Counted from the whole stretch's first letter, positions 5,003 through 56,373 are shown. The stretch is DNA of 62,065 nucleotides, filler included, from Clostridia bacterium (GCA_030637025.1; 4 parts of 4 records of this genome joined end to end with filler, not necessarily neighbours in it); one strand, 5' to 3'. Program-made: numbers and translations. The notes: generated by a model from the letters alone, not told the origin.

Positions 5003-5085
5003 TTCGACAAAAGCAAATCTCGAGCAATCGAGAGACGCAAAGCCACGGTCCACCATTAAGTAATGGCGGAAGCCGGGCTACCGAA
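5003..5085 (+). ncRNA. GEMM-I riboswitch (c-di-GMP-I fold), A20 variant typical of 3',3'-cGAMP sensors
   Basis: CG-ACAAAA-GCAAA-UCUCGA(GCAA)UCGAGA-GACGCAAAGCCACGG...AGCCGGGCUACCG; matches the GEMM consensus and ends a few nt before the ATG at 5088. Confidence 0.88.
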
Positions 5086-5087
5086 AA

Positions 5088-7556
5088 ATGAAAAACAAAT
5101 TAGCCATTTTCCTATTAATTTTATCAAGCCAGGCGTTCCTTGCCGGCGAAAAAACTTATGCAGTAATTAATCCATCTTTAACTAAAAATTCAATGCAATT
5201 TCATCCTTCAAAAAATAAATTCAAGGTAAAAACTATACCCCGGGAAATTTTAATTAAATTCAAGTCAAATTCTTTATTGATAAAAAATCAGTTTTCCTTA
5301 AAAAACAAACAACATAAAATAAAAAACATCTTTACCCTCTCCGGTCAGAAAAACATAAAAGAAAAAAACATTTCCAAATGGCATAAAATCTCTTTACCCC
5401 CAAATACAACGTTAGAGGAACTATCCGAAATTTACAAGAATTGCCCTGAGATAGAATTGGTAGAACCAAACCACATCTACGATATCTGCAGTTCCCCTAA
5501 CGATCCTTATTATAATTCTTCTACCAGCTGGGGACAATCTTACCGGGATATGTGGGGATTACACAAAATAGGCCTTTCCCATGCATGGGAAATAGAAAAA
5601 GGGAATGCATCAATTATTGTAGCCGTGGTAGATACGGGAATAGACCATACCCATCCGGATATCACTCATAATATCTGGCATAATTCCGGAGAAATTCCCG
5701 ATAACGGTATTGACGACGATCACAATGGCTATATAGATGACACAATAGGATGGAATTTTACTAATAATTCTAATGACCCTAAAGATGGACAAGGACACGG
5801 CAGTCACATTGCCGGGACTATTGCCGGAATAACTAATAATGCGACAGGAATTAGCGGAATTTCCTGGAATTCACAAATAATGTCCGTTAAAGGAATAAGT
5901 GATAACGGCTGGGGAACAGCCGCTGACTTAGCCAACAGTATAAAATATGCAGCTGATAACGGAGCGAACATTATTAATTTAAGCTGGGGAGGAATAGGTA
6001 CCAGCTGGATAATAAAAGAAGCCCTGGATTATGCTTACAGTAAAGGATGTATTATTGTTGCCGCTGCCGGAAATAGTAATCAGGATGTAAATACTTTTTT
6101 CCCTGCTAATTATGAAAAGGCTATTACTGTTGCCGCAACTAATTTTCTGGACGAAAAAACTTTTTTTTCTAATTATGGAACGAAAATTGATGTCGCAGCT
6201 CCGGGAATGGATATTTTATCTCTAAAAGCCGAAGGAACGGTTACTTCCGGGGTTGTAGGAACTAATTACTGCCGATTAAGCGGCACCAGTATGTCAGCAC
6301 CTCATGTTTGTGGAATAGCCGCTCTTATTCTTTCCCGGCATCCTGATTATACCAACGAAAAAATCGCTACACTCATAACCTGCTCTGCAGATGATTTGGG
6401 AGAGGAAGGAAAAGATATTTATTTTGGCTGGGGTCGAATAAACGCTTATAAAGCCCTCTTAGCCAGTGACGGAATATTTATTACCGACAGGGATTTAACG
6501 GTAATAGATACCCCTGGTGATAAAGGAAAAAGTATAACTATTTCCTGGCCGAAAAATTCCTACTCTGAAATTGAAGGATATAAAATCTATTACAGTCTTA
6601 CTTCTTTTACCGACTTATCGCAAGCCACTTATTATCCTTCTTCTCCTCTAAACAATCCCCAGGCAACTTCTGCTATTATAACTAACTTAGGAAGCGAATC
6701 CTGCGGTTATTATTTTTCTGTAATCGGAAATATTGACCGGGAAACAATGAGTACAGATTTAAACTTAACCACTTCTTTTTCTACTACAGAAGCAACCTAT
6801 CCGGTAAATAATACTATTAATACACTTACTGATAATGAAGTTATTATCGCCGGATTTGACCCGCAAACTAAAGTCGTTATTCCTCAGGGAACAAGCAATA
6901 ATGAAAAAACATTGGATATTTTTAAACCTAACACTTCCGAATTACCCAATCAAGAAGGGGAAGAGTTTTCCTCTCTGAACGACCAATCAGATGAACTTCT
7001 ATCTACTATCAGAGAAATCAAAACTTCTTCGGATTTAGCAGGAAGAATTAATCTAACTATTCCTTATCAAATAAGTTACTCTTCTTCCCCTCTTTATTCT
7101 CAAGAAAACAATTTAAGAATTTTTCAATTAAATGAAATCAAAAAATCATGGGAAATGGTTTCCGGTTTTCAAAAAGTAGATAAAGTGTTTAAGAACGTTT
7201 CTTGTGAAATTGAAAATCCTGATTGGCAAAATAGCACATTATACCGGATATTTCCGGCAATTCTCCATGCCCAAAAATTAAATCAAGTATGGGTTTATCC
7301 TAATCCCTATAAACCTAATTCTTTCAGTCATCATACTAAAATAATTTTTAGTAATTTAACACAGGAAGCAACGATAAGAATTTTCAATCTTGCAGGAGAA
7401 ATGGTCTTTAAAGGACAGGAAACGGATAGTGACGGAAAATACCAATGGCCGGTGACAAATAATAACGGAAAGAAACTGGCCAGTGGAATATATATTTATT
7501 TAATTACTAATAATCAAGGAGATAAGAAAACAGGTAAAATAGGAGTTATAAAATGA
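5088..7556 (+). CDS. S8 subtilisin-like serine peptidase with T9SS type-A-like CTD
   Basis: Catalytic triad motifs VVDTGID, HGSHIAG, GTSMSAP; C-terminus VYPNPYKP...IRIFNLAGE...LASGIYIY...KIGVIK. Confidence 0.92.
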   Translation: MKNKLAIFLLILSSQAFLAGEKTYAVINPSLTKNSMQFHPSKNKFKVKTIPREILIKFKSNSLLIKNQFSLKNKQHKIKNIFTLSGQKNIKEKNISKWHKISLPPNTTLEELSEIYKNCPEIELVEPNHIYDICSSPNDPYYNSSTSWGQSYRDMWGLHKIGLSHAWEIEKGNASIIVAVVDTGIDHTHPDITHNIWHNSGEIPDNGIDDDHNGYIDDTIGWNFTNNSNDPKDGQGHGSHIAGTIAGITNNATGISGISWNSQIMSVKGISDNGWGTAADLANSIKYAADNGANIINLSWGGIGTSWIIKEALDYAYSKGCIIVAAAGNSNQDVNTFFPANYEKAITVAATNFLDEKTFFSNYGTKIDVAAPGMDILSLKAEGTVTSGVVGTNYCRLSGTSMSAPHVCGIAALILSRHPDYTNEKIATLITCSADDLGEEGKDIYFGWGRINAYKALLASDGIFITDRDLTVIDTPGDKGKSITISWPKNSYSEIEGYKIYYSLTSFTDLSQATYYPSSPLNNPQATSAIITNLGSESCGYYFSVIGNIDRETMSTDLNLTTSFSTTEATYPVNNTINTLTDNEVIIAGFDPQTKVVIPQGTSNNEKTLDIFKPNTSELPNQEGEEFSSLNDQSDELLSTIREIKTSSDLAGRINLTIPYQISYSSSPLYSQENNLRIFQLNEIKKSWEMVSGFQKVDKVFKNVSCEIENPDWQNSTLYRIFPAILHAQKLNQVWVYPNPYKPNSFSHHTKIIFSNLTQEATIRIFNLAGEMVFKGQETDSDGKYQWPVTNNNGKKLASGIYIYLITNNQGDKKTGKIGVIK

Positions 7557-8485
7557 AAATTATTTTATTATTACTAATAAATTATTTCTGTTTGTTCTGC
7601 GGAATTTGTTTTACCTCTAATATAGGCACTACAGGAGCTCAATTCTTAAAAATCGGTATAGGTGCCCGCCCTATCGCTATGGGTGAAGCTTTTGTTGCTG
7701 TAGCCAACGATGCTAATTCCTGCTATTGGAACCCTGCCGGATTAAGTGAAATTACAACCCGGCAAACAACTACTACCTATATTCAATGGCTCGAAGAAAT
7801 TGGATATAACTACTCCAGTTATATCCAACCTATAAAGGATAACCATTTTCATTATGGAACAATCGGGCTTAGCGTAGCTTATTTGGGTATGGATGCTATC
7901 CCCAAAACCCAAATCGATTCCAATGATAACCTCGTAGAAACAGGAAAAACCTTTGATGCTTTAGACCTTGCTTTTATTTTTTCTTACGGGGGAAGAATAA
8001 AAAAATTTCTTTTGGGTTATAACATTAAATATATCAAACAAACAATTGAAGCAGAAAATGCTTCTACTTATAGTTTTGATTTAGGAATGAAATATCTTTC
8101 TTCCGATAACCTCTCTTTTGGTTTAGTTGCACAAAATATCATCGGTAAAATTAAATTTGTCAAAGAAGAAGATTCCCTGCCATTGAACATTAAAGGCGGT
8201 ATCGCCTATAAAACGGCTCATAATTCCTTGTTTTCCATAGACATTCATTTCCCGTTGGAAATAAACCAACCCAGTTACCACCTGGGCGGAGAACAAATCT
8301 TAAGTAATTTACTTATCCTTCGCGGAGGATATAAAATTAATACCCTCTCTGAATCTAATGAATTATCCGGATTATCTCTTGGACTGGGCCTTAATTGGAG
8401 AAAATACCATTTAGATTATGCCTGGGTACCTCATGGCAATTTAGGTCAAACTCATCATCTTTCTTTTTTCCTGAAGTTTAACTAG
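7553..8485 (+). CDS. PorV/PorQ-family (FadL-like) outer-membrane beta-barrel
   Basis: GAQFLKIGIGARPIAMGEAFVAVANDA-YWNPAGL N-terminus; DYAW...HHLSFFLKF end; 4-nt overlap with the peptidase gene. Confidence 0.85.
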   Translation: MKIILLLLINYFCLFCGICFTSNIGTTGAQFLKIGIGARPIAMGEAFVAVANDANSCYWNPAGLSEITTRQTTTTYIQWLEEIGYNYSSYIQPIKDNHFHYGTIGLSVAYLGMDAIPKTQIDSNDNLVETGKTFDALDLAFIFSYGGRIKKFLLGYNIKYIKQTIEAENASTYSFDLGMKYLSSDNLSFGLVAQNIIGKIKFVKEEDSLPLNIKGGIAYKTAHNSLFSIDIHFPLEINQPSYHLGGEQILSNLLILRGGYKINTLSESNELSGLSLGLGLNWRKYHLDYAWVPHGNLGQTHHLSFFLKFN

Positions 8486-9077: not shown

Positions 9078-10664
9078 TTAATCAGTCAAAATTACAAATT
9101 CCACACGTCTGTTTTCAGTCCGTCCCACCTTAGTTTTATTAGAACTTACGGGTTTTGTTTCTCCAAAACCCAAACAACTTAACCGCCCTCTGTTAATACC
9201 CTTTTTTACTAAATAATTAAATACGCTTTTCGCTCTCTTTTGGGAAAGGTTTAAATTATTCTCTGCCCTTCCGATTGAATCCGTATGGCCCTCTATCCTT
9301 ACTTTATAAAGGGGACATTTATTTAAAATTTCTACCACCTGATTTAAAGATGGTTTATCCAATATGCTGATTTTTGCATTTCCCGATTTAAAATGAGCTT
9401 TTACCGTAATAATTATTTTCTTTTTCTCTTTTCTTATTTCTAACTTTTTCGTTTTACGAATAGCATCTAAAAGTGCCTGTCGCTGAGAAGCTAATGCCTT
9501 TGCTTTTGTTGCCTCCATTCGGGCTCTTCTTGCTTCCCGTTTTGCCCGCTGAGCATCTTCCTTTGCTCCCTCGGCTAACTCCTGCAATCTTCGTTTTTCT
9601 TCTTCCTCTTCCTCTTTCTTTCGTGCTCTTTCCTCTTCCTTAATTGCCACTGTTTCTATTTCCTGCGGTGATTCTCCAAAACGGATGGTTAAAGATGCAC
9701 GATGTGAGCCACTTGTGTCTTCTATTTCTAACGGCCAGATGAAAGCATAATCAAACTGTAACCCGAATTTTCCCATTGTTTCATTATTAAAACTAAACCC
9801 GGAAGTAACCTCACGATTATTTCCCCCGATTCTAAATCCCCATGTCCTGCGGGCAAACCAACTTTCCCAACCCAGATAAACAATCAACTCTTCATCCCTA
9901 TAACTAACATCTACCGCAGAAACAATATTTTCCACCGCTAAAACATTTAAAAAATTACAATCTCCAAAATAATAAGCCAATCCTAACCTTCCTTCCAAAG
10001 GCACCTTATCTTCCGTCTTCAATCCTACATCCGGTTCGGTAATATTCTTAGCCATCAATCCAATAGACAAACCTTTCTCTTTTTTGCCGTTAGCTTTTAT
10101 TAATACCCCCACATCCCCGGTAAAATTACCTTTAGAATGGCCGTCGATAAAAACAGGGTCTTCCCTTGTCCGGTCATCCGTTGTATAAGAATGATTTAAA
10201 TATTTCAGATTAACCCCTAAAAAAAATGCCGGAATCAACTGGGGAAGAAAATCATTGACCTTCTTTGCATAAGAAAAGGTAAAGGTATTTTCTTCATATA
10301 ATTCCGTAGTAACAAAATTAGCCCAGGTCATTCCAAAACTACCTATTTTATTTAAAGGGAAAACAAAAGCACCATAATTTAAACCTAAATCAACCTTTTC
10401 CTCCCCTGCATACAAGTTCAACCCGGTAAATAAGCGGGCATACATAAAATTTGCTTCACAGCGTTTGATTTGGGCAATCCCGGCAGCATTCCACAAAGGA
10501 GCAGAGGCATCATCGCTTATTGCGGTAAATGCTCCTCCCATCCCTGCCGACCTTGTTCCCCAACCGCTATCTTTAAAAGCCGCTTCAGATAAAGAAACCA
10601 ATAACATATAAAACATAATAACCAAAACAGCTAAATTAACTTTATTAAATATTCTCCTATCCAT
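9078..10664 (-). CDS. PorP/SprF- or PorV-like barrel fused via a charged helical linker to an OmpA-like peptidoglycan-binding domain
   Basis: AAFKDSGWGTRSAGMGGAF-WNAAG; DYAFIWPL-GSHRASL; IEGHTDSIG-NLNLSQKRA-NRRVEF. Start moved to MDRRIF (10664) because the upstream 42 codons run through intergenic repeat sequence. Confidence 0.85.
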   Translation of the reverse strand: MDRRIFNKVNLAVLVIMFYMLLVSLSEAAFKDSGWGTRSAGMGGAFTAISDDASAPLWNAAGIAQIKRCEANFMYARLFTGLNLYAGEEKVDLGLNYGAFVFPLNKIGSFGMTWANFVTTELYEENTFTFSYAKKVNDFLPQLIPAFFLGVNLKYLNHSYTTDDRTREDPVFIDGHSKGNFTGDVGVLIKANGKKEKGLSIGLMAKNITEPDVGLKTEDKVPLEGRLGLAYYFGDCNFLNVLAVENIVSAVDVSYRDEELIVYLGWESWFARRTWGFRIGGNNREVTSGFSFNNETMGKFGLQFDYAFIWPLEIEDTSGSHRASLTIRFGESPQEIETVAIKEEERARKKEEEEEEKRRLQELAEGAKEDAQRAKREARRARMEATKAKALASQRQALLDAIRKTKKLEIRKEKKKIIITVKAHFKSGNAKISILDKPSLNQVVEILNKCPLYKVRIEGHTDSIGRAENNLNLSQKRAKSVFNYLVKKGINRGRLSCLGFGETKPVSSNKTKVGRTENRRVEFVILTD

Positions 10665-10773
10665 CTGATTATTCACTTCCCATTGACTACGAATTTTACT
10701 CCCCCCCCTGACACCTTCAACTGTTCTTAACCGTCTTTTCCAACCGTCTTTATTATTTTGCCTGCCCGCTAGT

Positions 10774-10824
10774 TTTATTGGGCAAGTCATTCCTGCGAAA
10801 GCAGGAATCTATTCTTTTGTCTTT
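10774..10824 (+). repeat. REP-like palindrome GTCATTCCTGCG(A/G)AAGCAGGAATC in a ~50-bp block, second copy at ~18842-18892
   Basis: Both copies lie between a type-B CTD gene and its downstream PorP-like gene. Confidence 0.8.
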
Positions 10825-10922: not shown

Positions 10923-12086
10923 TTACTTCGCTACGACTATTACTCCGCTTACTTTTTTCCCATTGTATTCATATTGATATATATAAACACCACTCTCTAC
11001 TATATCACTATCGTCATTGCGTCCATCCCATTGATAAGGAGCTATCTCTATAGTTCTTACTTTTCTACCTGTAACATCATAAATTTTAATGGAAACATTA
11101 TCCGTATCGGTTAACCCGTCAAAAGAAGCATAATCATTTATGCCATCCTGACTGGCGGGCGTAATAATTCTTTGCCGGGGACAATGAGTAAGCTCATTAA
11201 TTAACGCCGGAAAGACGGCAAATAAAGTATTATGGTCCAAAGAAGTAGTTACTGTATTTAAATCACTATTCACTGTTCCTCCTACTAACCTCCACTCAAA
11301 CCCATCCCACCATAAAATTTTTAATTCCCCTTCGGTAATAGGTGTCCCATCCTCTTTGACTTCACCGCTAAGATCAAAATAAAGTAAAGTTAACTTATAG
11401 GGTAAATTAAACTCAATATTTTCCGGTAAAATTTCATATACTGCTAACGGATTAACACTGCCGGCCACACCAAATCCCGCAGGAACATCAGCCGGGTCTT
11501 TCTGGCTAAAGGTTATCTCTATTTCACTTTCCAACGCACCTGCAGGTATTTCAAGACACACCTCTCCGTCTTCAGGATTTCCATCTACTAAAACAATAGT
11601 GCCCCCCTCAGGACCGATAATCTTAGTAACACTGGGATTTACAGCTATAATCTGCGCCGCACTTTTAGTACTAACACCCCCATCGCTATAAACAACCTCT
11701 ATATAACAGTTTACCCCATCTGTAGTTACTACATCTCCCGGAATATAATCTTTAAATTCATAAGTAGAAAGGGAAGGAGTAAACTCACGGGTAATTGCCC
11801 TATAGCTTGTCTCCGGTTCGGAAACCTTTTTATAATATAAAGATACCTTCTCCATTGTAATTTCCGTCATAATTTCCGCTTCCACATAAATCTTACTTCC
11901 CACTATATTAACTTCCGAAGGAATCTCAAACATTATCATCGCTTCAGGAATCAAGGAAACCAAAGCAACAGAACTTATAGTTTGTAATGTAGCAGCTATT
12001 AGCATAGAACAAGAAAAACACATAATGTTTAATCCCATTGCTAAACACAAAATTATCGATACTTTTTTCCTGCTGCGTTTAAACAT
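10923..12086 (-). CDS. Secreted protein with ZU5-like region and T9SS type-B-like CTD
   Basis: IGPEGGTI-LEIPAGALES-I; RIITPASQDGIND...WDGRND...ESGVYIYQY...VIVVAK. Confidence 0.8.
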   Translation of the reverse strand: MFKRSRKKVSIILCLAMGLNIMCFSCSMLIAATLQTISSVALVSLIPEAMIMFEIPSEVNIVGSKIYVEAEIMTEITMEKVSLYYKKVSEPETSYRAITREFTPSLSTYEFKDYIPGDVVTTDGVNCYIEVVYSDGGVSTKSAAQIIAVNPSVTKIIGPEGGTIVLVDGNPEDGEVCLEIPAGALESEIEITFSQKDPADVPAGFGVAGSVNPLAVYEILPENIEFNLPYKLTLLYFDLSGEVKEDGTPITEGELKILWWDGFEWRLVGGTVNSDLNTVTTSLDHNTLFAVFPALINELTHCPRQRIITPASQDGINDYASFDGLTDTDNVSIKIYDVTGRKVRTIEIAPYQWDGRNDDSDIVESGVYIYQYEYNGKKVSGVIVVAK

Positions 12087-12342: not shown

Positions 12343-13164
12343 TTAATAAATTATAATCTTTCCTTTTCTATTCATTTTAAAAGAGATCATTTTCTCAAGA
12401 ATATCCTCCGGATTACCATAATCAACAAACATACGCATTTTATATTTACCCTTTTTTAAATCCGCTTTTTTCCAGCTCCCATGATAAAATTCCGTTCGTT
12501 TAGGAAAAACCGGACGATTACATCGAAGTCTTATTCTTTTAATCTCTTTACCTTTTTTATCTATAATAACCGCTTCACACTGGGGGCGTAGATGAATATT
12601 TCCTTTATTTTCAATCTCCGCCGCAATCCACAACCCTTCTTCTGCTTTCTTTTTTTCTTTTATTTTAGACTTTTTTATAATTACTTTACTAATATTCGCT
12701 TTAACAATTTCAGTCCCTCTAATTATAACATATAAAGGAACACTAATCACCACATTAATCATACTTTCTTCCGGGCTTTCAGGAGAAAAACTATTCATAG
12801 CCATTAATAAACCCTTAGCTTTTTGCGGAATAGAAATCTTAAATTTTATTTCTTTTTTCTCCCCCGGTTTAAGCTTAAACTCCGAAGGAACAAATTGTAA
12901 CCAATCAGCAATCTTAATTTCTTTGTTTTCATCAGAGAGAAACCAGTATCTTGATTTTATACTAACTTTTGTAGTTTCCTTTTTCTGATTAAGAACAAAG
13001 TAACTCCCTTCTATTTTCTCCCCTGCAGCAATTTTTATCTCTATTTTACGGGGAGTGACACTAACAGTAGGTTTTTTCGCTAAAATTAACCCCACACAGA
13101 TTAAATTCAACCATGCCATCAAAAAAACTAATCTGATTGTCCACTGTTTACAATTTATTTTCAT
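12343..13164 (-). CDS. Exported two-Ig-domain chaperone-like protein (PapD/EcpB/DUF916-like)
   Basis: VSVTPRKIEI..., DWLQFVPSEFKLKPGEKKEIKFKISIP, VVISVPLYV, IENKGNIHLRP; very basic. Confidence 0.6.
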   Translation of the reverse strand: MKINCKQWTIRLVFLMAWLNLICVGLILAKKPTVSVTPRKIEIKIAAGEKIEGSYFVLNQKKETTKVSIKSRYWFLSDENKEIKIADWLQFVPSEFKLKPGEKKEIKFKISIPQKAKGLLMAMNSFSPESPEESMINVVISVPLYVIIRGTEIVKANISKVIIKKSKIKEKKKAEEGLWIAAEIENKGNIHLRPQCEAVIIDKKGKEIKRIRLRCNRPVFPKRTEFYHGSWKKADLKKGKYKMRMFVDYGNPEDILEKMISFKMNRKGKIIIY

Positions 13165-13273: not shown

Positions 13274-13981
13274 TTATAAGCTATACAACTCTAATACTAA
13301 CTTACTCGTTCTATACTCTTGCAGCGAAGAATCATGAAACCCGGCTGATAAATAAACAATACTCGGTGAATCACCGCCTGAAGGATTATCCGTCTCTGTC
13401 GGCGAATCATGCCAGTAAATACCTTCATCATCCCATATCCGAACGCCAAAATCATCATCAACCCAAACTGGGTTGGTACGACTATGATCAGACATCCATT
13501 TCCAAAAATGATTGGCATAAGGTTCATCTCCCGGCCAAGGATCAGGCGCCGTAACTGCTTCCACTGCCCCCTTCACGCTAAAGGCTAAAGGAATATAGCT
13601 TGTCGTATCAGTTACCCCTACTAAACCACCGAAATCATCTGATGTACCTGTATACAAGGGATTAGCACCAGTACCCTTATTGTCCGTATAGATCTGAATA
13701 CCCCAATCCGCATAGTTACAATCAAGGCTAACCTCAATATACTGATCAGCTACTTTCCACGAAGCCTGACCGGCAACTACACCACTCCAGCCAACCTGAC
13801 TTGCCGATACATTGTCACTGACATTTTTAATGTCTATACTGAAAGTATAAAATTGGGTCCCGGACAAATCAACGCTTGCGGTTGAAGTCTCCGTCTGCAA
13901 ACTCGCAGCTGTAGCTATTCCCACACTAAACAGTAATAATCCAACCATAAGACTTAATACCATTAAAACACTCTTTTTCAT
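13274..13981 (-). CDS. Secreted beta-rich single-domain protein (WxL/pilin-like), putative major subunit
   Basis: Signal peptide, strong RBS; WGIQIYTDN and terminal YRTSKLVLELYSL; paralogous to the N-domain of 14043..15251. Confidence 0.6.
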   Translation of the reverse strand: MKKSVLMVLSLMVGLLLFSVGIATAASLQTETSTASVDLSGTQFYTFSIDIKNVSDNVSASQVGWSGVVAGQASWKVADQYIEVSLDCNYADWGIQIYTDNKGTGANPLYTGTSDDFGGLVGVTDTTSYIPLAFSVKGAVEAVTAPDPWPGDEPYANHFWKWMSDHSRTNPVWVDDDFGVRIWDDEGIYWHDSPTETDNPSGGDSPSIVYLSAGFHDSSLQEYRTSKLVLELYSL

Positions 13982-14042: not shown

Positions 14043-15251
14043 TTACTCTTCCCACCGTACGTTATCTATCCAAAAAGTAATTCCACTCCCTCCATCGGCA
14101 AACATGGAAAAAGGTAATTTGATCTTACTAAAATTAATAGGAAGCCCATAAGTTTTACCTACCAGAGTGGAAAGATCTATTGCTACAGAATGCCAGGCAT
14201 CATCCAACGGCACCCCTAAATCAGCATAAACGTATTTTTCTGCAGAATCTAAACGACCCAGGGTATCTGTCCATTCAACACTTACCCCAAAATCATTACT
14301 GGCCTTTACATCAAATTTAAGATAAGCATCTGAGTATTCAGACATATCTGTTTCCACTGAAGGGCCGCCAATCCCATCAAATCCAAACTGAATCCATATA
14401 CCGCCCCAACCACCGGTAATAGTAAATTTTGAACTTGCCGGAGCTTCGGTATAAATTGTATCATCACCAACCATTTCAATTGTACCCCAAAATCCAATAT
14501 ACCCACCATCCGGGTCAGGTGGATTGAGTACATCCGCCTTTAAAGCAGAATATTTATAACTATCACAAAGGATACCATAAACGAGACTATCATCCAAAGA
14601 ATATAGCTCCAGAATTAATTTATTAGTTGTATACTGCTGGGCAGTAGATTGATGAAACCTTCCGGCCAAATAAACAAGATTAGGAGAATCATTCCATGCA
14701 GGATTGTACGGCTCTGTATCGGATTCATGCCAATAAATACCGTTTTCATCCCAAACCCGGACATAACTATTGTCATCTTCCCAAACAGGATTAACACGAC
14801 TATAATCCGACATCCATTTCCAACAATGATTGTTATAAAACTCCTCACCTACCCCTTCCCCCGGTTCAGGATCAGGAGCAATGACAACTTCCGTTGAGCC
14901 TTTCACGCTAAAAGCTAAAGGGATATAGGTTGAAGGATGAATTAGCCCCACTAAACCACCCGGATCATCTGCTGTACCGGTATACAAAGGGTCAGCACCA
15001 GTACCTTTATTATCCGTATACATTTGAACACCCCAATCCAGAAGATTACAATCAATATTAATCTCAATATATTGGTCCGCTACTTTCCAGGTATCAGACC
15101 CGGCAATTATATCTGAATAGGTAATTTGAGTATCGGAAGTGTTATCCTCAACTTTTTTAATCGCGATATCAAAAGACCAATGTGCATATACCGGAAGACT
15201 TAATATTATCATCAATATAAATCCCCAAATAATCATTTTTTTTTGTCTCAT
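14043..15251 (-). CDS. Paralogous subunit domain + C-terminal CBM/galactose-binding-like domain, putative adhesin
   Basis: WKVADQYIE, WGVQMYTDNKGTGA, YTTNKLILELYSL shared with 13274..13981; then GGWGGIWI...DMSEY..LKFDVK...WHSVAIDLS...FWIDNVRW. Confidence 0.65.
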   Translation of the reverse strand: MRQKKMIIWGFILMIILSLPVYAHWSFDIAIKKVEDNTSDTQITYSDIIAGSDTWKVADQYIEINIDCNLLDWGVQMYTDNKGTGADPLYTGTADDPGGLVGLIHPSTYIPLAFSVKGSTEVVIAPDPEPGEGVGEEFYNNHCWKWMSDYSRVNPVWEDDNSYVRVWDENGIYWHESDTEPYNPAWNDSPNLVYLAGRFHQSTAQQYTTNKLILELYSLDDSLVYGILCDSYKYSALKADVLNPPDPDGGYIGFWGTIEMVGDDTIYTEAPASSKFTITGGWGGIWIQFGFDGIGGPSVETDMSEYSDAYLKFDVKASNDFGVSVEWTDTLGRLDSAEKYVYADLGVPLDDAWHSVAIDLSTLVGKTYGLPINFSKIKLPFSMFADGGSGITFWIDNVRWEE

Positions 15252-15289
15252 ATCTGATTTTCCTTAAATTATTTTACTATTTTACTAAT

Positions 15290-15345
15290 AAAAAACGGGC
15301 TACCTTACTTGGCTATAATTATCTTATAGTCAGTTCGGTAGCCCG
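15290..15345 (-). terminator. Intrinsic terminator overlapping the aptamer 3' end (expression platform)
   Basis: CGGGCUACC...GGUAGCCCG followed by a U run. Confidence 0.8.
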
Positions 15346-15504
15346 GCTATCTTGTTTTTTAAAAAAAGACCCGTAACTTTGCCTGCTTACTAAGCAAAAA
15401 CTACTTTTTGTCCCGCATAGTAAGCGATTCATCCATTATCCGCCGCTACTTAACAACGGAAAAATAAATAAATGTCTTCGCCTCACGACGAATCTGCCTT
15501 TTCG
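15336..15504 (-). ncRNA. c-di-GMP-I (GEMM) riboswitch with a 91-nt two-hairpin insertion
   Basis: CG-AAAAG-GCAGA-UUCGUC(GUGA)GGCGAA-GAC [15473-15383] GCAAAGUUACGGGUCU...AGAUAGCCGGGCUACCG. Confidence 0.8.
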
Positions 15505-15551
15505 GATAAAATTTTCAAAGAAATACTTGTTTAAGAGCTTCCTTACTTAAT

Positions 15552-15580
15552 AGTATAGCACAAAACTTCTCTTTTGTCAA
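15552..15580 (-). promoter_or_regulatory. Sigma70-type promoter of riboswitch operon B
   Basis: TTGACA-17 nt-TATACT with extended -10 TG. Confidence 0.75.
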
Positions 15581-15605
15581 TATTGTTTATGTCCCATAAC
15601 CTTAC

Positions 15606-16544
15606 TTATTCATACGCCTGGGCACTAACACAAACAGATATTTTTTGTGGACTGCCAATGGAAGTTGTCTGCGGAGCTTTAAATTCAACCCATAAATATA
15701 CAAATTCTCCTACAGATAAACCTACCCCATCTTCATTCCCGGCAAATTTACCATCCGGAGAAGAGCCACATTCTGCCGGGGTTGTAGATAAAGCATGCTG
15801 ACTATTATTAAAACTCCCTTCTGACGGCCGAGTTGAATTAAACATTACACTAAGAATATACCGGTTATGCTCAATCGGTTCACTTTGCACTGCAGTCCAG
15901 CCGGGAGGATTTTTTAACTTTAATAAACAATTTAATACACCCTCACCAATATTTCTAACCAGAAAAGATTGAGTAGATATTGCATCCCCACCGGCAGAAA
16001 CCTCTCCAAAATCATAGGCACCTTCTATAGATATACCGATTATTTCTGCCCTGGCTATAGCATAAGCACAACTACCTATCCCTGTATAAGGGTCATAATT
16101 AGAAATATATCCCTCATAAGGCGGAGGGCCATCAGCAGCTATTATCTCCTCTGGAACTTCTTCTAAGACAGCATTATCCGTGGCTTTAATGGAAATATAA
16201 TAAAGTTGCCCCGGATTAAATCCGGTAAGCATATATCTTTCTAATTCCCCTTTTGCTTTTGGTGTCCAGGTTTGAGAATATATAGTGGCATTGTTATATG
16301 CTTCTTCTGTATCTATGGGACTACCGGAATATCTCACCTCATAACTTGCCACTCCGGGTTGCCAATCAGATAATTCGTTCGGAACTCTCCAGGTTATTTC
16401 TATTTCTCCTCTGTCCAATCCGGTATAAGCTGCTAAATCATCAAGAGTTAAAAGATATCCCGGGACGGAAGTGGCATAACTATATGCAATTACTCCCAAA
16501 ATAATACTACTTGAGATTATAAATCCCCTCAAAATCTTTTTCAT
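15606..16544 (-). CDS. Secreted FN3-like domain + C-terminal beta-rich domain shared with 20611..21702
   Basis: IEITWRVP-YEVRYS-LTGFNPGQLYYISIKATD; then YDFG...VRNIG...PPGW...LWVEFKAP...QKISVCVSA. Confidence 0.65.
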   Translation of the reverse strand: MKKILRGFIISSSIILGVIAYSYATSVPGYLLTLDDLAAYTGLDRGEIEITWRVPNELSDWQPGVASYEVRYSGSPIDTEEAYNNATIYSQTWTPKAKGELERYMLTGFNPGQLYYISIKATDNAVLEEVPEEIIAADGPPPYEGYISNYDPYTGIGSCAYAIARAEIIGISIEGAYDFGEVSAGGDAISTQSFLVRNIGEGVLNCLLKLKNPPGWTAVQSEPIEHNRYILSVMFNSTRPSEGSFNNSQHALSTTPAECGSSPDGKFAGNEDGVGLSVGEFVYLWVEFKAPQTTSIGSPQKISVCVSAQAYE

Positions 16545-16781: not shown

Positions 16782-17669
16782 CTATTTCGTCGTTACATAA
16801 ATCTTACAATAAACCTCTTTAGCCACATCCCCTGAAAAAACCTTAATCCGGGCAATAAACATATATTTTTTCTTGCGATATTTTCTTTTTTTAGGAAAAC
16901 TAAGAAACACCTTTATCTTTTTGCTGCTCTTCATTCCGACAATTGCTTTCTTGGCACTAAAAGTCAAAAAGGACGGGTCAGGACAATCTTCATAACCTTT
17001 AGTAAGTTCAACCTGAGAATCCGCTACCCTGATACTTTCGATATTATAGAGACTTCCGATTTCCCCTAAATTTTTTATTTCCATAACCTTACCGGTTTTT
17101 TTCTCTATATCAATTATTGCGCCCACTTTCACTTTTTCAAGGTGTATTTCCTGCGGATTAATTGTAAAATTTAAATTTAGCGGTTTCTTTATTTTCCCTT
17201 TTTTATGAAAAGTAGTAAACAAGAATTTACTCTCTACCCCTACATTAATTACTTCGTTAGTGCTGTAAGACCAGATATTAAACTGATATTTTTTATCCAG
17301 ATATTCATCCCTATCCGGAATAGAAATAACTATATCCATTGCCTGTTTTTTTCCGGGCCCAATAATAGAATTTTCAGGAATAATTTTTATCCAGGAAACG
17401 TTTGGTATCGGTTGGTAACCTTCTTTTAATTTCTTTTTAGCCGGGGATAATACTTCTGCTTTAAGATTTATTGCCCTTTCCCCGGTATTGGTAATAACTA
17501 AAAATAAATTAGCTAAATGCGAGGTATGATGAGTTTGTCCCACCCTTAAATTTTGAATAGTTACTTCTTCAAAAGAAGCAATAATTCCTGTAGCATAAAC
17601 AGGATGGATAAAACAAACTATAGTAAACAAAAAGAAACAACTAATAATGATTAAACCTTTTTTAATCAT
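16782..17669 (-). CDS. Exported protein with two tandem chaperone-like Ig domains
   Basis: Internal repeat GYQPIPNVSWI...SIP...KKYQF / GYEDCPDPSFL...SFP...KKYMF; very basic. Confidence 0.55.
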   Translation of the reverse strand: MIKKGLIIISCFFLFTIVCFIHPVYATGIIASFEEVTIQNLRVGQTHHTSHLANLFLVITNTGERAINLKAEVLSPAKKKLKEGYQPIPNVSWIKIIPENSIIGPGKKQAMDIVISIPDRDEYLDKKYQFNIWSYSTNEVINVGVESKFLFTTFHKKGKIKKPLNLNFTINPQEIHLEKVKVGAIIDIEKKTGKVMEIKNLGEIGSLYNIESIRVADSQVELTKGYEDCPDPSFLTFSAKKAIVGMKSSKKIKVFLSFPKKRKYRKKKYMFIARIKVFSGDVAKEVYCKIYVTTK

Positions 17670-17722: not shown

Positions 17723-18739
17723 TTAGAAATGAATTCCTAAAGAAACACGATGTGTCCCGCTGGTTTCTTCTATTTCCAGCGGCCAGATAAGGGCATAATC
17801 AAACTGGACGGCAAAAACTTCACCCATTAAATGATTTAATCCCATACCCAAAGTAAACTCTTGTAAATTATAGCCTATCCGGAAGGCAAAAGCAGATGAA
17901 AACCGCGTTTCCATCCCTAAATGAAAGTTAATATCTTTATCGCGATAAGTAAAATCAAAAGCAGGGATAAATCCTTCTATGTTCAAAAAATTAAATATTC
18001 TACAAGCATTACCTCTATAAGCAATTCCTGCTCTCATTTCTAAAGGAACTTCATCTTTCAATTTATACTCACTATTATCCAGACCTACATCCGGCTGATT
18101 AATATTTTTCAGGGATAAACCAAGAGACACCGGTGAATCTTTTTGGGGTTTAACTAAAACTCCTAAATCAACAGCACATGCACCCGCAGAATCCCCATCT
18201 TCAAATACCGGATCATCTACTGTCCGTTCATCCAGGGTATACCCATGATTTAAATATTTTAAATTCATTCCCAAAAATACAACCGGAACCATTTTAGGAG
18301 CAAAATCATTAATTTTTCTGGCATAGGAAACACTAAGAGTGTCTTCTTTATACAATTTTGTAGAAGCAAACCTTGCCCAGGATAAGCCAAAAGCTCCCAT
18401 TCTTTCCGTCGGACAAATAAAAGAAAAATAATTCAATCCTAAAGTCGTAGTATCTTCTCCGGCATATAATTTTAAACCGCTAAATAATCGAGCATACATA
18501 AAACTTGCTTCGTATTGTTTTACCTGAGCTATTCCTGCCGGATTCCATAAAGGAGCATTAGCATCATCAGCTATTGCCACAAAAGCACCGCCCATTCCGG
18601 CCGGCCGTGTTCCCCAACCGCTATCTTTAAATGCCGCTTCACCCAAAGTAACAAAAAACAAACAATAAACACCTGAAATAATAAATAACCCGATTTTATT
18701 AAATGTTTTTCTATTCATCTTAATTACCATTTTCACCAC
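17723..18739 (-). CDS. PorP/SprF- or PorV-like outer-membrane barrel (exact start uncertain)
   Basis: AAFKDSGWGTRPAGMGGAFVAIADDANAPLWNPAG; terminal GTHRVSLGIHF; close paralogue of the 9078 barrel. Confidence 0.85.
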   Translation of the reverse strand: MVKMVIKMNRKTFNKIGLFIISGVYCLFFVTLGEAAFKDSGWGTRPAGMGGAFVAIADDANAPLWNPAGIAQVKQYEASFMYARLFSGLKLYAGEDTTTLGLNYFSFICPTERMGAFGLSWARFASTKLYKEDTLSVSYARKINDFAPKMVPVVFLGMNLKYLNHGYTLDERTVDDPVFEDGDSAGACAVDLGVLVKPQKDSPVSLGLSLKNINQPDVGLDNSEYKLKDEVPLEMRAGIAYRGNACRIFNFLNIEGFIPAFDFTYRDKDINFHLGMETRFSSAFAFRIGYNLQEFTLGMGLNHLMGEVFAVQFDYALIWPLEIEETSGTHRVSLGIHF

Positions 18740-18954: not shown

Positions 18955-20526
18955 TTATTTCGCTACTGCTATTACCCCGCTGGTCAATTTTCCATTGTAC
19001 TTGTATTGATAAATATAAACACCGCTTTCCACTATATCCCTATCGTCATCCCGGCCATCCCACCTTACCTGAATATATGGTTCTACTGAAATTATTTCGG
19101 GGGTTAAAGTCCTTATTTTCTTACCTCTAATATCAAATATCTTAACTTCACTATCCAACCCATTAAAATCAGCATAATCATTTATCCCGTCGCCGTTAGG
19201 CGTTATAATCCGTTCATAAGGCCTAAAATCTTTTGATTCAAAACCCCTGGCGGCAAAAAGGGCGTACATAGAAAAATGAGAAATTTCAGCCGTAACAGTA
19301 TGATTTTCGGTATTAACTACACCCCCGACATAACGCCAGCTATAGCCATCCCAGTAAAAAAGTTTTAAAGTAGTAGCGTCAAGAGGAGGAAAAATATCAT
19401 CAACAAATCCATCACTTTGATTAACAGAATCATCGCTTTCATTATCCATATAAAGCATAGACAACATTACCGGCCTTCTAAACTCAAAATTGTCCGGAGA
19501 AAAATCATAAACAGCTACCGGTTTATCATTCAAGATAAGACGCCGCGTAGCTATAGGTACACTCACTTCTTCAATTTCCTTTTGTGTAATGGTTATCGTT
19601 GTATCAGCAGTTAAAGCATTGCGCGGTATAACAATTTTAGTTTCTCCGTCTTCAGAATTACCATCGACTACTGTTACCGTACCCCCATCCTCAGTGACCG
19701 TACTACTGGTTATTGTACTTACTTCCAGAATATAAGGAACTTCAGGAGCATTAAAAGGAAAATAGTTTGTATCCTCTGTAATATCCATAGCCATATAATA
19801 TTCTATTCCCTGGGCAGTTACTGCTTCTTTAGGAATAACCGTCCTGCCTGTATAAAAAGCACCTGCCGGGTCAGGGCTAAACAAAGTACTTGTATAAAAC
19901 TCTTCCCCTTTTTTTCTATAATATAAAGTCACTTTATTTATGTCATCATCCATAGTAGAAAAATCCAAGTTAAATACTATTTTATTACCAATCATTCCTA
20001 CTTTGTTAATAAACGGAGAAGTACTTGACCCATAAGAACTAAAGAAAGACGTTACATTTAAATACATTTTGGTTATTCCGCCTGCCCCTGCATTGGGACC
20101 GACATCTATTGCTTCTAACCGAAATTGATATTTTTTATCCCTATATTGCTGGTCTTCCGGAATATTAATAATCATATTAATTGCCTTTTGTTCTCCTGCG
20201 GCCAAAATGAAACTGGTCGGCTCAACCAATTGTATCCAGGAAAGATCCGGTAAGACCTCATAACCCTCTTCATCCGGGTTACCTATAAATAAACTTACCT
20301 CCACTTGAGCAGAAGTAGTTTTAGGATTTATTACATAAATATGAGCATAAGAAGGAACCATCTCATTATAATTGTAAACACTTCCTATTCCTATATCTAT
20401 CCATACCTCCGAAGGGGTAATCTGCACACCTAAGGCAAAAACAAGCACAGGAATAAAACATAAGGTTATTCCAGCTATGATAAAAAGTAATTTAATTTTT
20501 AGTTTTCTAAATAAAAATACTTGCAT
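18955..20526 (-). CDS. Chaperone-like N-domain + ZU5-like region + T9SS type-B-like CTD
   Basis: GYEVLPDLSWI...NIPEDQQYRDKKYQF; RIITPNGDGIND...WDGRDD...VIAVAK; paralogue of 10923..12086. Confidence 0.8.
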   Translation of the reverse strand: MQVFLFRKLKIKLLFIIAGITLCFIPVLVFALGVQITPSEVWIDIGIGSVYNYNEMVPSYAHIYVINPKTTSAQVEVSLFIGNPDEEGYEVLPDLSWIQLVEPTSFILAAGEQKAINMIINIPEDQQYRDKKYQFRLEAIDVGPNAGAGGITKMYLNVTSFFSSYGSSTSPFINKVGMIGNKIVFNLDFSTMDDDINKVTLYYRKKGEEFYTSTLFSPDPAGAFYTGRTVIPKEAVTAQGIEYYMAMDITEDTNYFPFNAPEVPYILEVSTITSSTVTEDGGTVTVVDGNSEDGETKIVIPRNALTADTTITITQKEIEEVSVPIATRRLILNDKPVAVYDFSPDNFEFRRPVMLSMLYMDNESDDSVNQSDGFVDDIFPPLDATTLKLFYWDGYSWRYVGGVVNTENHTVTAEISHFSMYALFAARGFESKDFRPYERIITPNGDGINDYADFNGLDSEVKIFDIRGKKIRTLTPEIISVEPYIQVRWDGRDDDRDIVESGVYIYQYKYNGKLTSGVIAVAK

Positions 20527-20610: not shown

Positions 20611-21702
20611 TTAACTTTTTTCCGCAGTAACTACTACGCGAATTGTTTGTTGTCCTGATATTGAACCACCTGTCGGTGTTTTGAGTCGAATCCATACTGC
20701 CCGCGTATTATTCCATGCCGAATCCCAGGAAACAGCTACACCATTACCACTATCATCACTGTCAAATTTACCTACCGCTCCTGAATCCGCACACTCCTGA
20801 GAAGTAGTAGTAATAATATCCTCTGCACCAAAATCCTCTGTTATTATACTCCCAGGTGTTACATCCGTGTTAGAAACCACACCGTAAATAACATATTCGT
20901 TAAATCCAGGGGTCTCATCAGCACTTGAAGACCAACCCGGAGGGTCAAGTACTTTAAGCAGAAAATCTTCGTTCACATCTCCGATATTGGCTACGGTCAA
21001 ATACTTATCACCTACAGCGTTTTCACTGCTAATCATCTCTATCCCATATGATGAATCTCCAAAAGCCATATTTCCGGAAACACTTACACCTACTGTTCCT
21101 CCGCTTATAGTAACCGTGATAATACCTGCTCCACCGCCCACATATTTTATATCATCAACAAAAACCTCAATCGGGTTGGTTAAACTGGAATTTTCACCTG
21201 CCGCTAACATCATCCACCAAAGATTGGTAACCGCACTCATATTTTGCTTGGAAAGATCTATTTCTGCTGCTGTCCATCCGGTAGAACTAATAGTAATCGG
21301 ATCTCCGGCAACAGTATGTTCACCGCAAGAATCCTCATCCAAAGTTCCCGAACCTACACCGAAATGAGCAACAACACCTTCTTTATTAGCAGAAACATTA
21401 AATTGCATTTTCGTATGGCCGGTTAAATCAAGAGGTATCGCTCCGCCAAAAGCTTGTGCACCGATTTTTGCCCAGGTAATTTCTTTAGGAAAAGAAAATT
21501 TTGCACAAATATCGTCTCCGCCTTCATATGGGTCAGTAATCTCTGAGTCCGTTATATCACCGGCAGCACCACTCCATAAAGACAGAACCTGCTGCCAACT
21601 ATCTTCATAAATCGGAGTATCTGCATAGGAATTACCTACCATAAACATGCTGGTTACAACTAACAACGCCATTATAACTAAAGACTTTTTCATTTTTTTC
21701 AC
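20611..21702 (-). CDS. Secreted CBM-like domain + C-terminal beta-rich domain shared with 15606..16544
   Basis: LDLTGHTKMQF...WTAAEIDLS...VFVDDIKY; then MAFG...VANIG...PPGW...VWIRLKTP...QTIRVVVTA. Confidence 0.65.
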   Translation of the reverse strand: MKKMKKSLVIMALLVVTSMFMVGNSYADTPIYEDSWQQVLSLWSGAAGDITDSEITDPYEGGDDICAKFSFPKEITWAKIGAQAFGGAIPLDLTGHTKMQFNVSANKEGVVAHFGVGSGTLDEDSCGEHTVAGDPITISSTGWTAAEIDLSKQNMSAVTNLWWMMLAAGENSSLTNPIEVFVDDIKYVGGGAGIITVTISGGTVGVSVSGNMAFGDSSYGIEMISSENAVGDKYLTVANIGDVNEDFLLKVLDPPGWSSSADETPGFNEYVIYGVVSNTDVTPGSIITEDFGAEDIITTTSQECADSGAVGKFDSDDSGNGVAVSWDSAWNNTRAVWIRLKTPTGGSISGQQTIRVVVTAEKS

Positions 21703-21891
21703 CTCCTTCCTTTGTTTTATTTTTTTTATTTATTTTGTAATTATAAAAAAAACCATACCACTAAATCCGGGAGGAAAACAACAATTTTAATATACCTGAT
21801 TAGCTTAAATATGGGCAATTCGGTAATAAAAAACGGAAAGTTTATTAATTCTCAGAGGTTTTTACTTAAAACTTTCACCTAATTATATAAC

Positions 21892-21950
21892 AAAAAAAAC
21901 CGACCCACCTACTTGGCTACAATTGTCTTATAGTCAGTTCGATAGTTCGG
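21892..21950 (-). terminator. Intrinsic terminator overlapping the aptamer 3' end
   Basis: CCGAACUAUC...GGUGGGUCGG followed by U8. Confidence 0.75.
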
Positions 21951-22106
21951 CCATCCCCCCATTACTTACCGGCGGACCCGCAACTTTGCCTGCTTACCAG
22001 GCACAAATCAAAAATATACCTTTTGACCTGACTCCAGTAAGAGACTTACCCGTCATCACTTAGCGACGAATAAGTGCCTTCGCCTCACAGCGAATTTGCC
22101 TTTTCG
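21940..22106 (-). ncRNA. GEMM-I riboswitch with an 86-nt two-hairpin insertion; U at the C92-equivalent position
   Basis: CG-AAAAG-GCAAA-UUCGCU(GUGA)GGCGAA-GGC [22075-21990] GCAAAGUUGCGGGUCC...GGAUGGCCGAACUAUCG. Confidence 0.8.
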
Positions 22107-22137
22107 TATAAAATTTTCAAATATCAAATCTAAAAAT

Positions 22138-22167
22138 ACTATACCATATTTTTTTTACCTTTGTCAA
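22138..22167 (-). promoter_or_regulatory. Sigma70-type promoter of riboswitch operon A
   Basis: TTGACA-18 nt-TATAGT with extended -10 TG. Confidence 0.7.
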
Positions 22168-22189
22168 GAAAAAAATAAAAAACATTTTA

Positions 22190-56230: not shown

Positions 56231-56373
56231 CAGACTGTGTCACAATCCCCTTTTTTGTAGTCGCAGGTTTTTTTCCAAATCCGCCTGAGGTTGAGCGGAC
56301 AAGTCGCTCGCGGAAAAGCTTCGACGATAACGTTGCGGCTACCACATAAAAATATGAGTTATGACTCAGTTTG
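56231..56373. mobile_element. MITE-like element
   Basis: 15-bp TIRs CAGACTGTGTCACAA / TTATGACTCAGTTTG (12/15), ATT on both flanks, internal GTAG...CTAC palindrome. Confidence 0.55.

Follow-up and report, generated by a model that had tools for sequence, protein, structure and literature searches.

Two complete c-di-GMP-I (GEMM-I) aptamers were located on the minus strand of the window, by which we mean the whole stretch of DNA analysed (62,065 nucleotides, filler included, of a Clostridia bacterium, GCA_030637025.1): copy B at positions 15334-15505 and copy A at positions 21938-22107. In both, the sequence GRC|GCAAAG, contiguous in ordinary GEMM-I (Vc2 C44|G45), is split by an insert that folds into a pair of abutting hairpins (H1, H2). 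The split copies add a new architecture to an established riboswitch class. Judged from the sequence, we put the probability at roughly 70 % that they would act as working c-di-GMP-I ON riboswitches in which the pocket helix is rebuilt as a four-way junction by a peripheral structural module. The anatomy of the sequences, the covariation within the inserts, their spread in public data and the overlap of the aptamers with terminators were observed.

Anatomy of the split aptamers

Copy B consists of CCGAAAAGGCAGA-UUCGUC-GUGA-GGCGAA-GAC, an insert of 91 nt (15473-15383), GCAAAG, a P3 stem with an AG bulge and ACCGAA, in this order. The parts of copy A follow each other in the same way, with an insert of 86 nt (22075-21990). 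A preceding sequence-only reading had stated the split at C44|G45 together with both insert lengths, and the sequence, read directly, agrees. The contiguity of GAC with GCAAAG is a feature of the GEMM-I class; it is broken in copies A and B, and the break defines the variant. The first hairpin is composed of GC / AGA / UUCGUC-GUGA-GGCGAA / GAC / GC in copy B and of GC / AAA / UUCGCU-GUGA-GGCGAA / GGC / GC in copy A, every pair being standard, and presents in both cases the 2-bp stem (G21-C46, C22-G45), an internal loop of 3 nt per side and the 6-bp GNRA stem. P1 is short in both, with 2-3 bp. No open reading frame of at least 50 amino acids overlaps copy A or copy B. Coordinates are collected in Table 1.

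Table 1. Coordinates of the split aptamers, their expression signals and the following genes in the window
Feature	Position	Strand	Description
Copy B promoter-like site	15552..15580	-	TTGACA, 17-nt spacer, TATACT, TG before -10; 11/12 consensus, match only
Copy B aptamer, 5' part	15474..15505	-	P1 5' strand (CG), G20 at 15498, G21-C22, AGA loop, 6-bp P2 with GUGA tetraloop, GAC; C44 equivalent 15474
Copy B insert hairpin H1	15427..15473	-	11-bp base AUUUAUUUAUU/AAUGGAUGAAU, 9-bp inner stem, AAGU loop; from fold and pair table
Copy B insert hairpin H2	15383..15426	-	CUUACU/AGUAAG base, inner A/U stem; flanking C...CAG, probable C-G closing pair
Copy B aptamer, 3' part	15334..15382	-	G45-C46, A47 at 15380, P3 with AG bulge, G83 equivalent 15347, A91, C92 at 15338, P1 3' strand; from Rfam alignment
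Copy B intrinsic terminator	15290..15345	-	CGGGCUACC ... GGUAGCCCG, then U6; 5' arm is P3 3' strand, C92 and P1; from fold
First gene after copy B	14043..15251	-	402 aa, hydrophobic N-terminus, no Pfam family
Later ORFs after copy B	13274-13981, 12343-13164, 10923-12086, 9078-10790		CHU_C sorting domain (10923-12086), OmpA (9078-10790)
Copy A promoter-like site	22138..22167	-	TTGACA, 18-nt spacer, TATAGT, TG before -10; 11/12 consensus
Copy A aptamer, 5' part	22076..22107	-	G20 at 22100, P2 UUCGCU-GUGA-GGCGAA, GGC; C44 equivalent 22076
Copy A insert hairpin H1	22044..22075	-	ACUUAUUCGUC/GACGGGUAAGU; from fold and pair table
Copy A insert hairpin H2	21990..22043	-	Long; base CU-CUUACUGG.../...CCUGGUAAG-C-AG; from fold
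Copy A aptamer, 3' part	21938..21989	-	GCAAAG, P3, GG bulge (G83 equivalent 21951), U for C at position 92 (21942)
Copy A intrinsic terminator	21892..21950	-	CCGAACUAUC ... GGUGGGUCGG, then U8; overlaps aptamer 3' strand; from fold
First gene after copy A	20611..21702	-	363 aa; orthologue (64 % identity) follows riboswitch copy in genome G001
Later ORFs after copy A	18955-20526, 17723-18739, 16782-17669, 15606-16544		CHU_C (18955-20526), PorP/SprF-like (17723-18739), fn3 (15606-16544)

Residue numbers in copies A and B were assigned by analogy to Vc2, for which the accessible part of PMC11705072 numbers G20, G21, G42, C44 and G45; by this numbering the insert is located exactly between C44 and G45. 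The same part of that source describes the long-range pair C44-G83 as essential, the mutants G83C and C44G/G83C failing to bind. The core residues are present in both copies: G20, A47 in GCAAAG, the C closing GRC and the equivalent of the bulged G83. Position 92 is C in copy B and U in copy A. The hallmark of family RF03167, a G47 (consensus GCGAA), is absent from both split copies, which read GCAAAG, and likewise from a third aptamer of the window.

This third aptamer, at 5003-5086 (+), is a contiguous GEMM-I element detected by RF03167 with 65.2 bits. As it reads AAAAGCAAA, it has an A where G20 is expected, which we take to be the signature of the cGAMP-sensing GEMM-Ib. The ATG of an 822-aa ORF (5088-7556) comes 2 nt past the end of this aptamer, and a PorP/SprF-like ORF (7553-8485) is next in line. 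At 56239-56278 (+) a weak match to a CRISPR direct-repeat family was noticed (RF01321, 22.4 bits, cut-off 39). A U at the ligand-contacting position 92 was seen in copy A (21942, -) and in one copy of a related genome (G002:C32, L075 ~505, -), and may mean an altered or relaxed cyclic-dinucleotide specificity.

Relatives, structural conservation and detection

The variant is present in all three genomes of the GTDB phylum of G001, a public MAG, in five copies with inserts of 49-91 nt; these three species genomes, G001-G003, represent the phylum of the window organism in the collection searched. G001 carries the copy B region with 98 % identity over 299 nt, flanks included, and a second copy that precedes the orthologue of the gene after copy A, with 71.5 % identity for the RNA and 64 % for the protein. 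Both hairpins are kept in this orthologue of copy A (H1 AUUCAUCUGCC/GGCGGGUGAAU, H2 base CUCGCU/AGCGGG). Wholly different inserts, again of two abutting hairpins, occur in G002:C32 (49 nt) and G003:C24 (73 nt). One and the same search pattern gave a bimodal distribution in G001-G003: 14 aptamers were contiguous, none had an insert of 5-34 nt and five had an insert of 35-95 nt. G003:C117 (L076) is a natural insert-less relative with an almost identical first hairpin, and such relatives in the same lineage permit a direct comparison. Orthologous or homologous genes follow riboswitch copies in the three genomes.

Three further observations concern these genomes. The uneven divergence from G001, for the copy B region (15285-15585) on one side and the copy A region (21885-22175) with its following protein on the other, points to surface-protein loci that evolve fast or recombine, or else to assemblies of mixed strains. 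The phylum has a high density of GEMM-I elements, G001 alone having 13 matches above the Rfam cut-off in 1.9 Mb. A match to group II intron domain 1-4 (RF02005, 59 bits; L075 1-172, -), truncated where the contig stops, is situated shortly after the riboswitch terminator of G002:C32; insertion behind intrinsic terminators is a property of class C group II introns.

For metagenome contigs a pattern of AAAGGCARA, a 6-bp GNRA hairpin, GRC, 35-95 nt of any sequence and GCAAARYYRCGG was used. It was found in at least 120 stretches, and 80 loci were among the matches listed. There, 54 of the 80 loci had a two-hairpin insert; at least 48 of these inserts are distinct and form at least 25 clusters at 80 % identity, with a GC content of 40-67 %. 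In the other 26 of the 80 loci among the matches listed the 'insert' represents a second aptamer half, since it starts with GCAAAG and contains a second GGCAAA-hairpin-GAC. In such nested or tandem GEMMs, e.g., L105 1109-1259 (-), the first hairpin and a GCAAAG-P3 5' strand are followed by a complete second aptamer within 73-95 nt, which may put the two 5' halves in competition for a single 3' strand. The pattern forced G20-C22, GNRA, GRC and GCAAA, thus the conservation of these positions is no evidence. A covariance model (R2) was built from 19 GC-rich metagenome sequences with short inserts of 35-37 nt, none of them from the lineage of the window. R2 matched the window copies end to end with 39.7 bits (E 7e-9) and 31.9 bits (E 1.5e-6), and also recovered the copies of G001-G003. 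A model from the window lineage (R1) misaligned the short-insert copy G002:C32 and was discarded, and R2 served for the family alignment.

The pattern was absent from the genomes sampled elsewhere: 401 of the phylum of G061 (Dethiosulfatarculus), 101 of the phylum of G062 and five single genomes. An initial pattern for genome contigs, modelled closely on copies A and B, gave 51 stretches, of which 50 were chance or coding matches and one was real (L042). Viral contigs gave no matches to patterns that were mainly syntax trials. The DNA of the window itself also occurs in sequencing runs from cold seep and marine sediment metagenomes, as their labels state, and one of these runs may be where it was obtained. 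The layout is not a product of chance, nor is it peculiar to the window.

The insert of copy B folds into two hairpins with -32.6 kcal/mol (z -5.43) and the insert of copy A with -31.6 kcal/mol (z -5.50); none of 200 shuffles was as good in either case. Together with the relatives in G001-G003 and the metagenome matches listed, the window copies provide 55 distinct inserts. All 55 among these matches are two adjacent hairpins across the whole insert, with a median z of -4.6, as against 325 of 2750 dinucleotide-preserving shuffles; a single-hairpin fold was found in none of the 55, which measure 35-95 nt. The geometry is tight: the linker from GRC to H1 has 0 nt in 54 of the 55 inserts among the matches listed, that from H1 to H2 in 42 and that from H2 to GCAAA in 43. 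In this same set the basal pairs are canonical in 51-55 inserts with up to six pair types, the range being 46-55 over six basal pairs per hairpin, and the closing pair of H2 is C-G in 46. The hairpins measure 15-54 nt each and share no common loop or bulge nucleotides among the 55 listed. The earlier description of a UAAGU apex and a shared CAG held for copies A and B, but neither is a feature of the G001 orthologue of copy A or of the wider family; the CAG tail is best read as carrying the C-G closing pair of H2.

Selection on the structure of the inserts, proposed by the sequence-only reading on account of compensatory changes, was confirmed in paralogues, orthologues and unrelated metagenome lineages. 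In the family alignment A5 (101 rows), whose counts lean towards the model structure to which it was fitted and which also includes contiguous and nested aptamers with gapped H1/H2 cells and a few misaligned rows, changes on both sides were found in 7 of 7 pairs of H1 and 6 of 6 pairs of H2. About 96 % of the H1/H2 cells were paired, a value that fell to 26-46 % when the partners were slid by 1-3 columns and was matched by none of 500 shuffles; the first H2 pair had 12 unpaired cells. Between copy A, copy B and the G001 orthologue of copy A all 13 aligned pairs of H1 and H2 are standard, three of them (35-79, 85-129, 86-128) with changes on both sides. Strain variants in H1 of copy B, observed on contigs of two other runs, maintain the pairing (U.G to U-A at 15433, G-C to G.U at 15445); further differences of copy B in the same runs are one loop change and one added base in a U run. 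The ten pairs of P3 are all standard in copies A and B and in the G001 copy, and six of the ten vary on both sides in A5. Among the 49 rows of A5 with H1 and H2, two residues that the search pattern left free were conserved, G83 in 48 and C92 in 46; G20 and A47 occurred in all 49, both forced by the pattern.

That the two inserts differ in sequence yet fold alike was likewise confirmed, as no BLAST match exists between them. A dispersed repeat or mobile element was rejected as their origin: in the window and in G001-G003, self-matches aside, nothing matched the inserts but the G001 orthologue of copy B and A/T-rich words of 10-24 nt, and neither insert recurs within the window. No known RNA family was detected in the inserts by Rfam at E up to 10, and sensitive Rfam scans of both loci returned weak chance matches only (CopA 14.7, RalA 11.3, SpF25 15 bits).

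The Rfam model RF01051 has no states for the insert. On copy B it reached 35.5 bits at a cut-off of 35, and this only with a local end within the insert standing in for the first hairpin; on copy A it gave two half matches below the threshold, one to the first hairpin (17.4 bits) and one to GCAAAG with the second hairpin (22.1 bits). The insert-less G003:C117, taken as a proxy for an aptamer relieved of its insert, scored 62.8 bits, the insert-bearing relatives G002:C122 and G001:C257 24.3 and 23.9 bits. For G002:C32 a variant model (cut-off 65.9) gave 34.0 bits, and G003:C24 had no Rfam match at E up to 0.1. The RF01051 cut-off was reached by 9 of the 19 two-hairpin metagenome loci tested, in all cases via local ends. 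The c-di-GMP-I-GGC and c-di-GMP-I-UAU models (RF03167, RF03168) sometimes out-scored RF01051 on the sequences studied. Covariance models can miss split GEMMs, as had been anticipated: copy A, the three phylum copies tested with an insert of more than 49 nt and 10 of the 19 metagenome loci escape the standard models. These models under-call split riboswitches, and the c-di-GMP regulons of sediment and candidate-phylum genomes are therefore underestimated; once the junction is part of the model, the missed riboswitches are recovered.

Expression signals and proposed mode of action

Both copies lie between a promoter-like site and an intrinsic terminator that shares its 5' arm with the aptamer 3' strand. 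Within the accessible part of the original GEMM report (Weinberg 2007, PMC1950547), a terminator overlapping the 3' strand is the ON design, with ligand-dependent anti-termination. The proteins of the downstream operons have hydrophobic N-termini and CHU_C (type IX sorting), PorP/SprF-like, OmpA and fn3 domains. The first genes of the two operons are not clear paralogues, since their homology is weak (E 0.036). All three GEMM-I elements of the window precede operons for surface or secretion-linked proteins. A single RNA contig, from one metatranscriptome run, maps to the window, at 15550-15620 outside the riboswitch. A conserved pairing between insert and terminator flank was considered and rejected, as the CUUACU/AGUAAG complementarity of copies A and B is not found in G001:C257 or G002:C122. 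A different platform was noticed in other members of the family: a second P3 3' strand (AGCCGRGYU.CCGA), some 25-60 nt further on than the first, makes up the 5' arm of the terminator or lies ahead of it. It is seen at L059 1520-1640 (-), L072 1500-1560 (-) and L075 440-500 (-) and, among the matches listed, at most metagenome loci with inserts of 35-37 nt, e.g., L119 590-647, and is absent from copies A and B. Such an expression platform, in which two 3' strands are alternatives for the same aptamer, is a recurrent design.

In the proposed mechanism C44 would pair over a long range with G83 of the other helix, and G45-C46 would close the 2-bp pocket floor. The chain would leave the first hairpin after C44, make the abutting H1 and H2 and return at G45; with linkers of 0-1 nt at H1 and H2, the internal loop of the first hairpin would thereby become a four-way junction. 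Being on one continuous strand, H1 and H2 would most likely stack coaxially as a side rod, which would spare the canonical stack, the GNRA loop and the C44-G83 contact, and their helices would have to form so that C44 meets G45. Bound c-di-GMP would keep the 3' strand of P3, C92 and P1 inside the aptamer, where they would be unable to form the 5' arm of the terminator, and read-through would then express the operons for secreted and outer-membrane proteins. Ligand binding, the ON logic and the coaxial geometry of H1 and H2 are what we infer here. By analogy, regulation would be as in other GEMM-I ON switches, and high c-di-GMP would switch on surface or adhesion functions.

A structural module is the simplest reading of the insert, because only the helices are conserved. 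The sequence-only reading had offered a second sensor, a protein-binding site or a kinetic tuner as roles. The variable loop sequences and hairpin lengths lend no support to a second sensor, and the restriction of conservation to helices across the 55 distinct inserts among the matches listed lends none to a specific protein site either. The insert may act as a kinetic tuner, but nothing argues for this, and it is situated upstream of the aptamer part that competes with the terminator. The insert adjoins the pocket floor and may affect affinity or specificity. Two observations also allow for a role of the junction itself in affinity, folding or specificity: the inserts (among the matches listed) consist of two hairpins in every case, and C-G is the preferred closing pair of H2. 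As a tentative and rather doubtful proposal, the H1/H2 pair could constitute an undescribed, widespread subclass of c-di-GMP-I with a functional junction that fixes C44 and the 2-bp pocket floor and alters affinity, kinetics, Mg2+ or temperature dependence, or specificity. If true, this could explain why the inserts among the matches listed are always two hairpins, never one.

A function of the two-hairpin module in its own right appears unlikely to us, whether it tunes affinity or folding (for instance as a clamp on C44 and the 2-bp pocket floor, or by offsetting a weak tetraloop-receptor contact) or gives a protein or another RNA a place to dock and thereby supplies a second regulatory input. 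The invariable pair of hairpins in all 55 inserts among the matches listed is in its favour, as is the persistence of the module in at least 25 sequence clusters and in the phylum of the window; the C-G closing pair in 46 of the 55 listed hints at a junction-specific constraint. The module also sits at the residue of the contact C44-G83 that is essential according to the accessible part of PMC11705072. However, loop and bulge nucleotides are unconserved in hairpins of such variable length, the UAAGU apex is lost even in the orthologue of copy A, and the alternative pairing of insert and terminator is not kept across copies. The covariation of the inserts would be expected merely from their folding out of the way.

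We consider it very unlikely that an insertion by the pocket, together with U92 in copy A, shifts the specificity such that some of these RNAs sense, e.g., 3'3'-cGAMP and not c-di-GMP. Positions 20 and 92 reportedly set GEMM specificity, according to work of the Strobel and Hammond laboratories, and both copy A and G002:C32 read AUCGA where C92 is expected; the insert moreover abuts the G45-C22 pair beneath the ligand. However, C92 is kept in copy B and in 46 of the 49 insert-bearing rows, G20 and A47 (pattern-forced) in all of them, and no known ligand-contacting base is replaced by the insert. Scarcely credible is a decay of the aptamers into relics broken by insertion, with leaders that are constitutive attenuators or inert: Rfam scores at or below the cut-off and the short P1 would fit, but all core residues are intact, promoter, terminator and terminator overlap are retained, the inserts show compensatory changes among paralogues, orthologues and unrelated metagenome lineages, and copy B is 98 % identical over 299 nt in another assembly, with H1 strain variants that keep the pairing.

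Comparison with known riboswitches

In the accessible part of the original description of GEMM (PMC1950547), stems of 2 bp and 6 bp are parted by a 3-nt internal loop and insertions are unmentioned; no word beginning with 'insert' occurs in that text. No description of a hairpin insertion at C44|G45 was found in the main texts of the accessible full-text literature, including PMC1950547, PMC11705072 and PMC5041473, and the accessible part of PMC8835794 contained nothing relevant to an insertion. Within this scope the statement of the sequence-only reading that no GEMM with such a domain is known to have been described stands.

The split copies share with the c-di-GMP-I class (RF01051, Vc2) the G20, the first hairpin of 2 bp and 6 bp with its GNRA loop and an internal loop of 3 nt, A47 within the AAA linker, the bulged G83 of the second hairpin, in copy B also C92, the overlap of the 3' strand with a terminator in an ON design and the association with surface and membrane genes. 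They differ in the two hairpins (35-95 nt in the sequences collected) between C44 and G45 that lead to a four-way junction. As a natural experiment, they indicate that the backbone between the essential C44 and the pocket floor tolerates, or exploits, such a junction. The tandem GEMMs (Weinberg 2007) are caught by the same length-tolerant pattern, at 26 of the 80 loci among the matches listed, whereas the window copies have no second aptamer.

The variants RF03167 and RF03168 belong to the same clan as RF01051, in which no model covers the two-hairpin insert of the split copies. What sets the GGC and UAU variants apart is a change in the pocket nucleotides and not in the architecture. From RF03167 the window copies differ by GCAAAG in place of the consensus GCGAA, with G20/A47/C92 in copy B and G20/A47/U92 in copy A. 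The GEMM-Ib riboswitches of Geobacter, which sense 3'3'-cGAMP, have the shared fold, their specificity being set at position 20; the split copies in contrast have G20, and A20 occurs in the window only at the contiguous 5003-5086 aptamer.

Optional peripheral hairpins of variable length are known from TPP, cobalamin and FMN aptamers. As in the split GEMMs, such helices are lineage-specific and covarying, show no conserved sequence and leave the ligand core unchanged. The insert of the split GEMMs differs from them in its position, which is neither the tip of a hairpin nor a variable loop: it interrupts the backbone where a tertiary-contact nucleotide is followed by the pocket floor. It differs also in its form, which among the matches listed is always that of an abutting hairpin pair.
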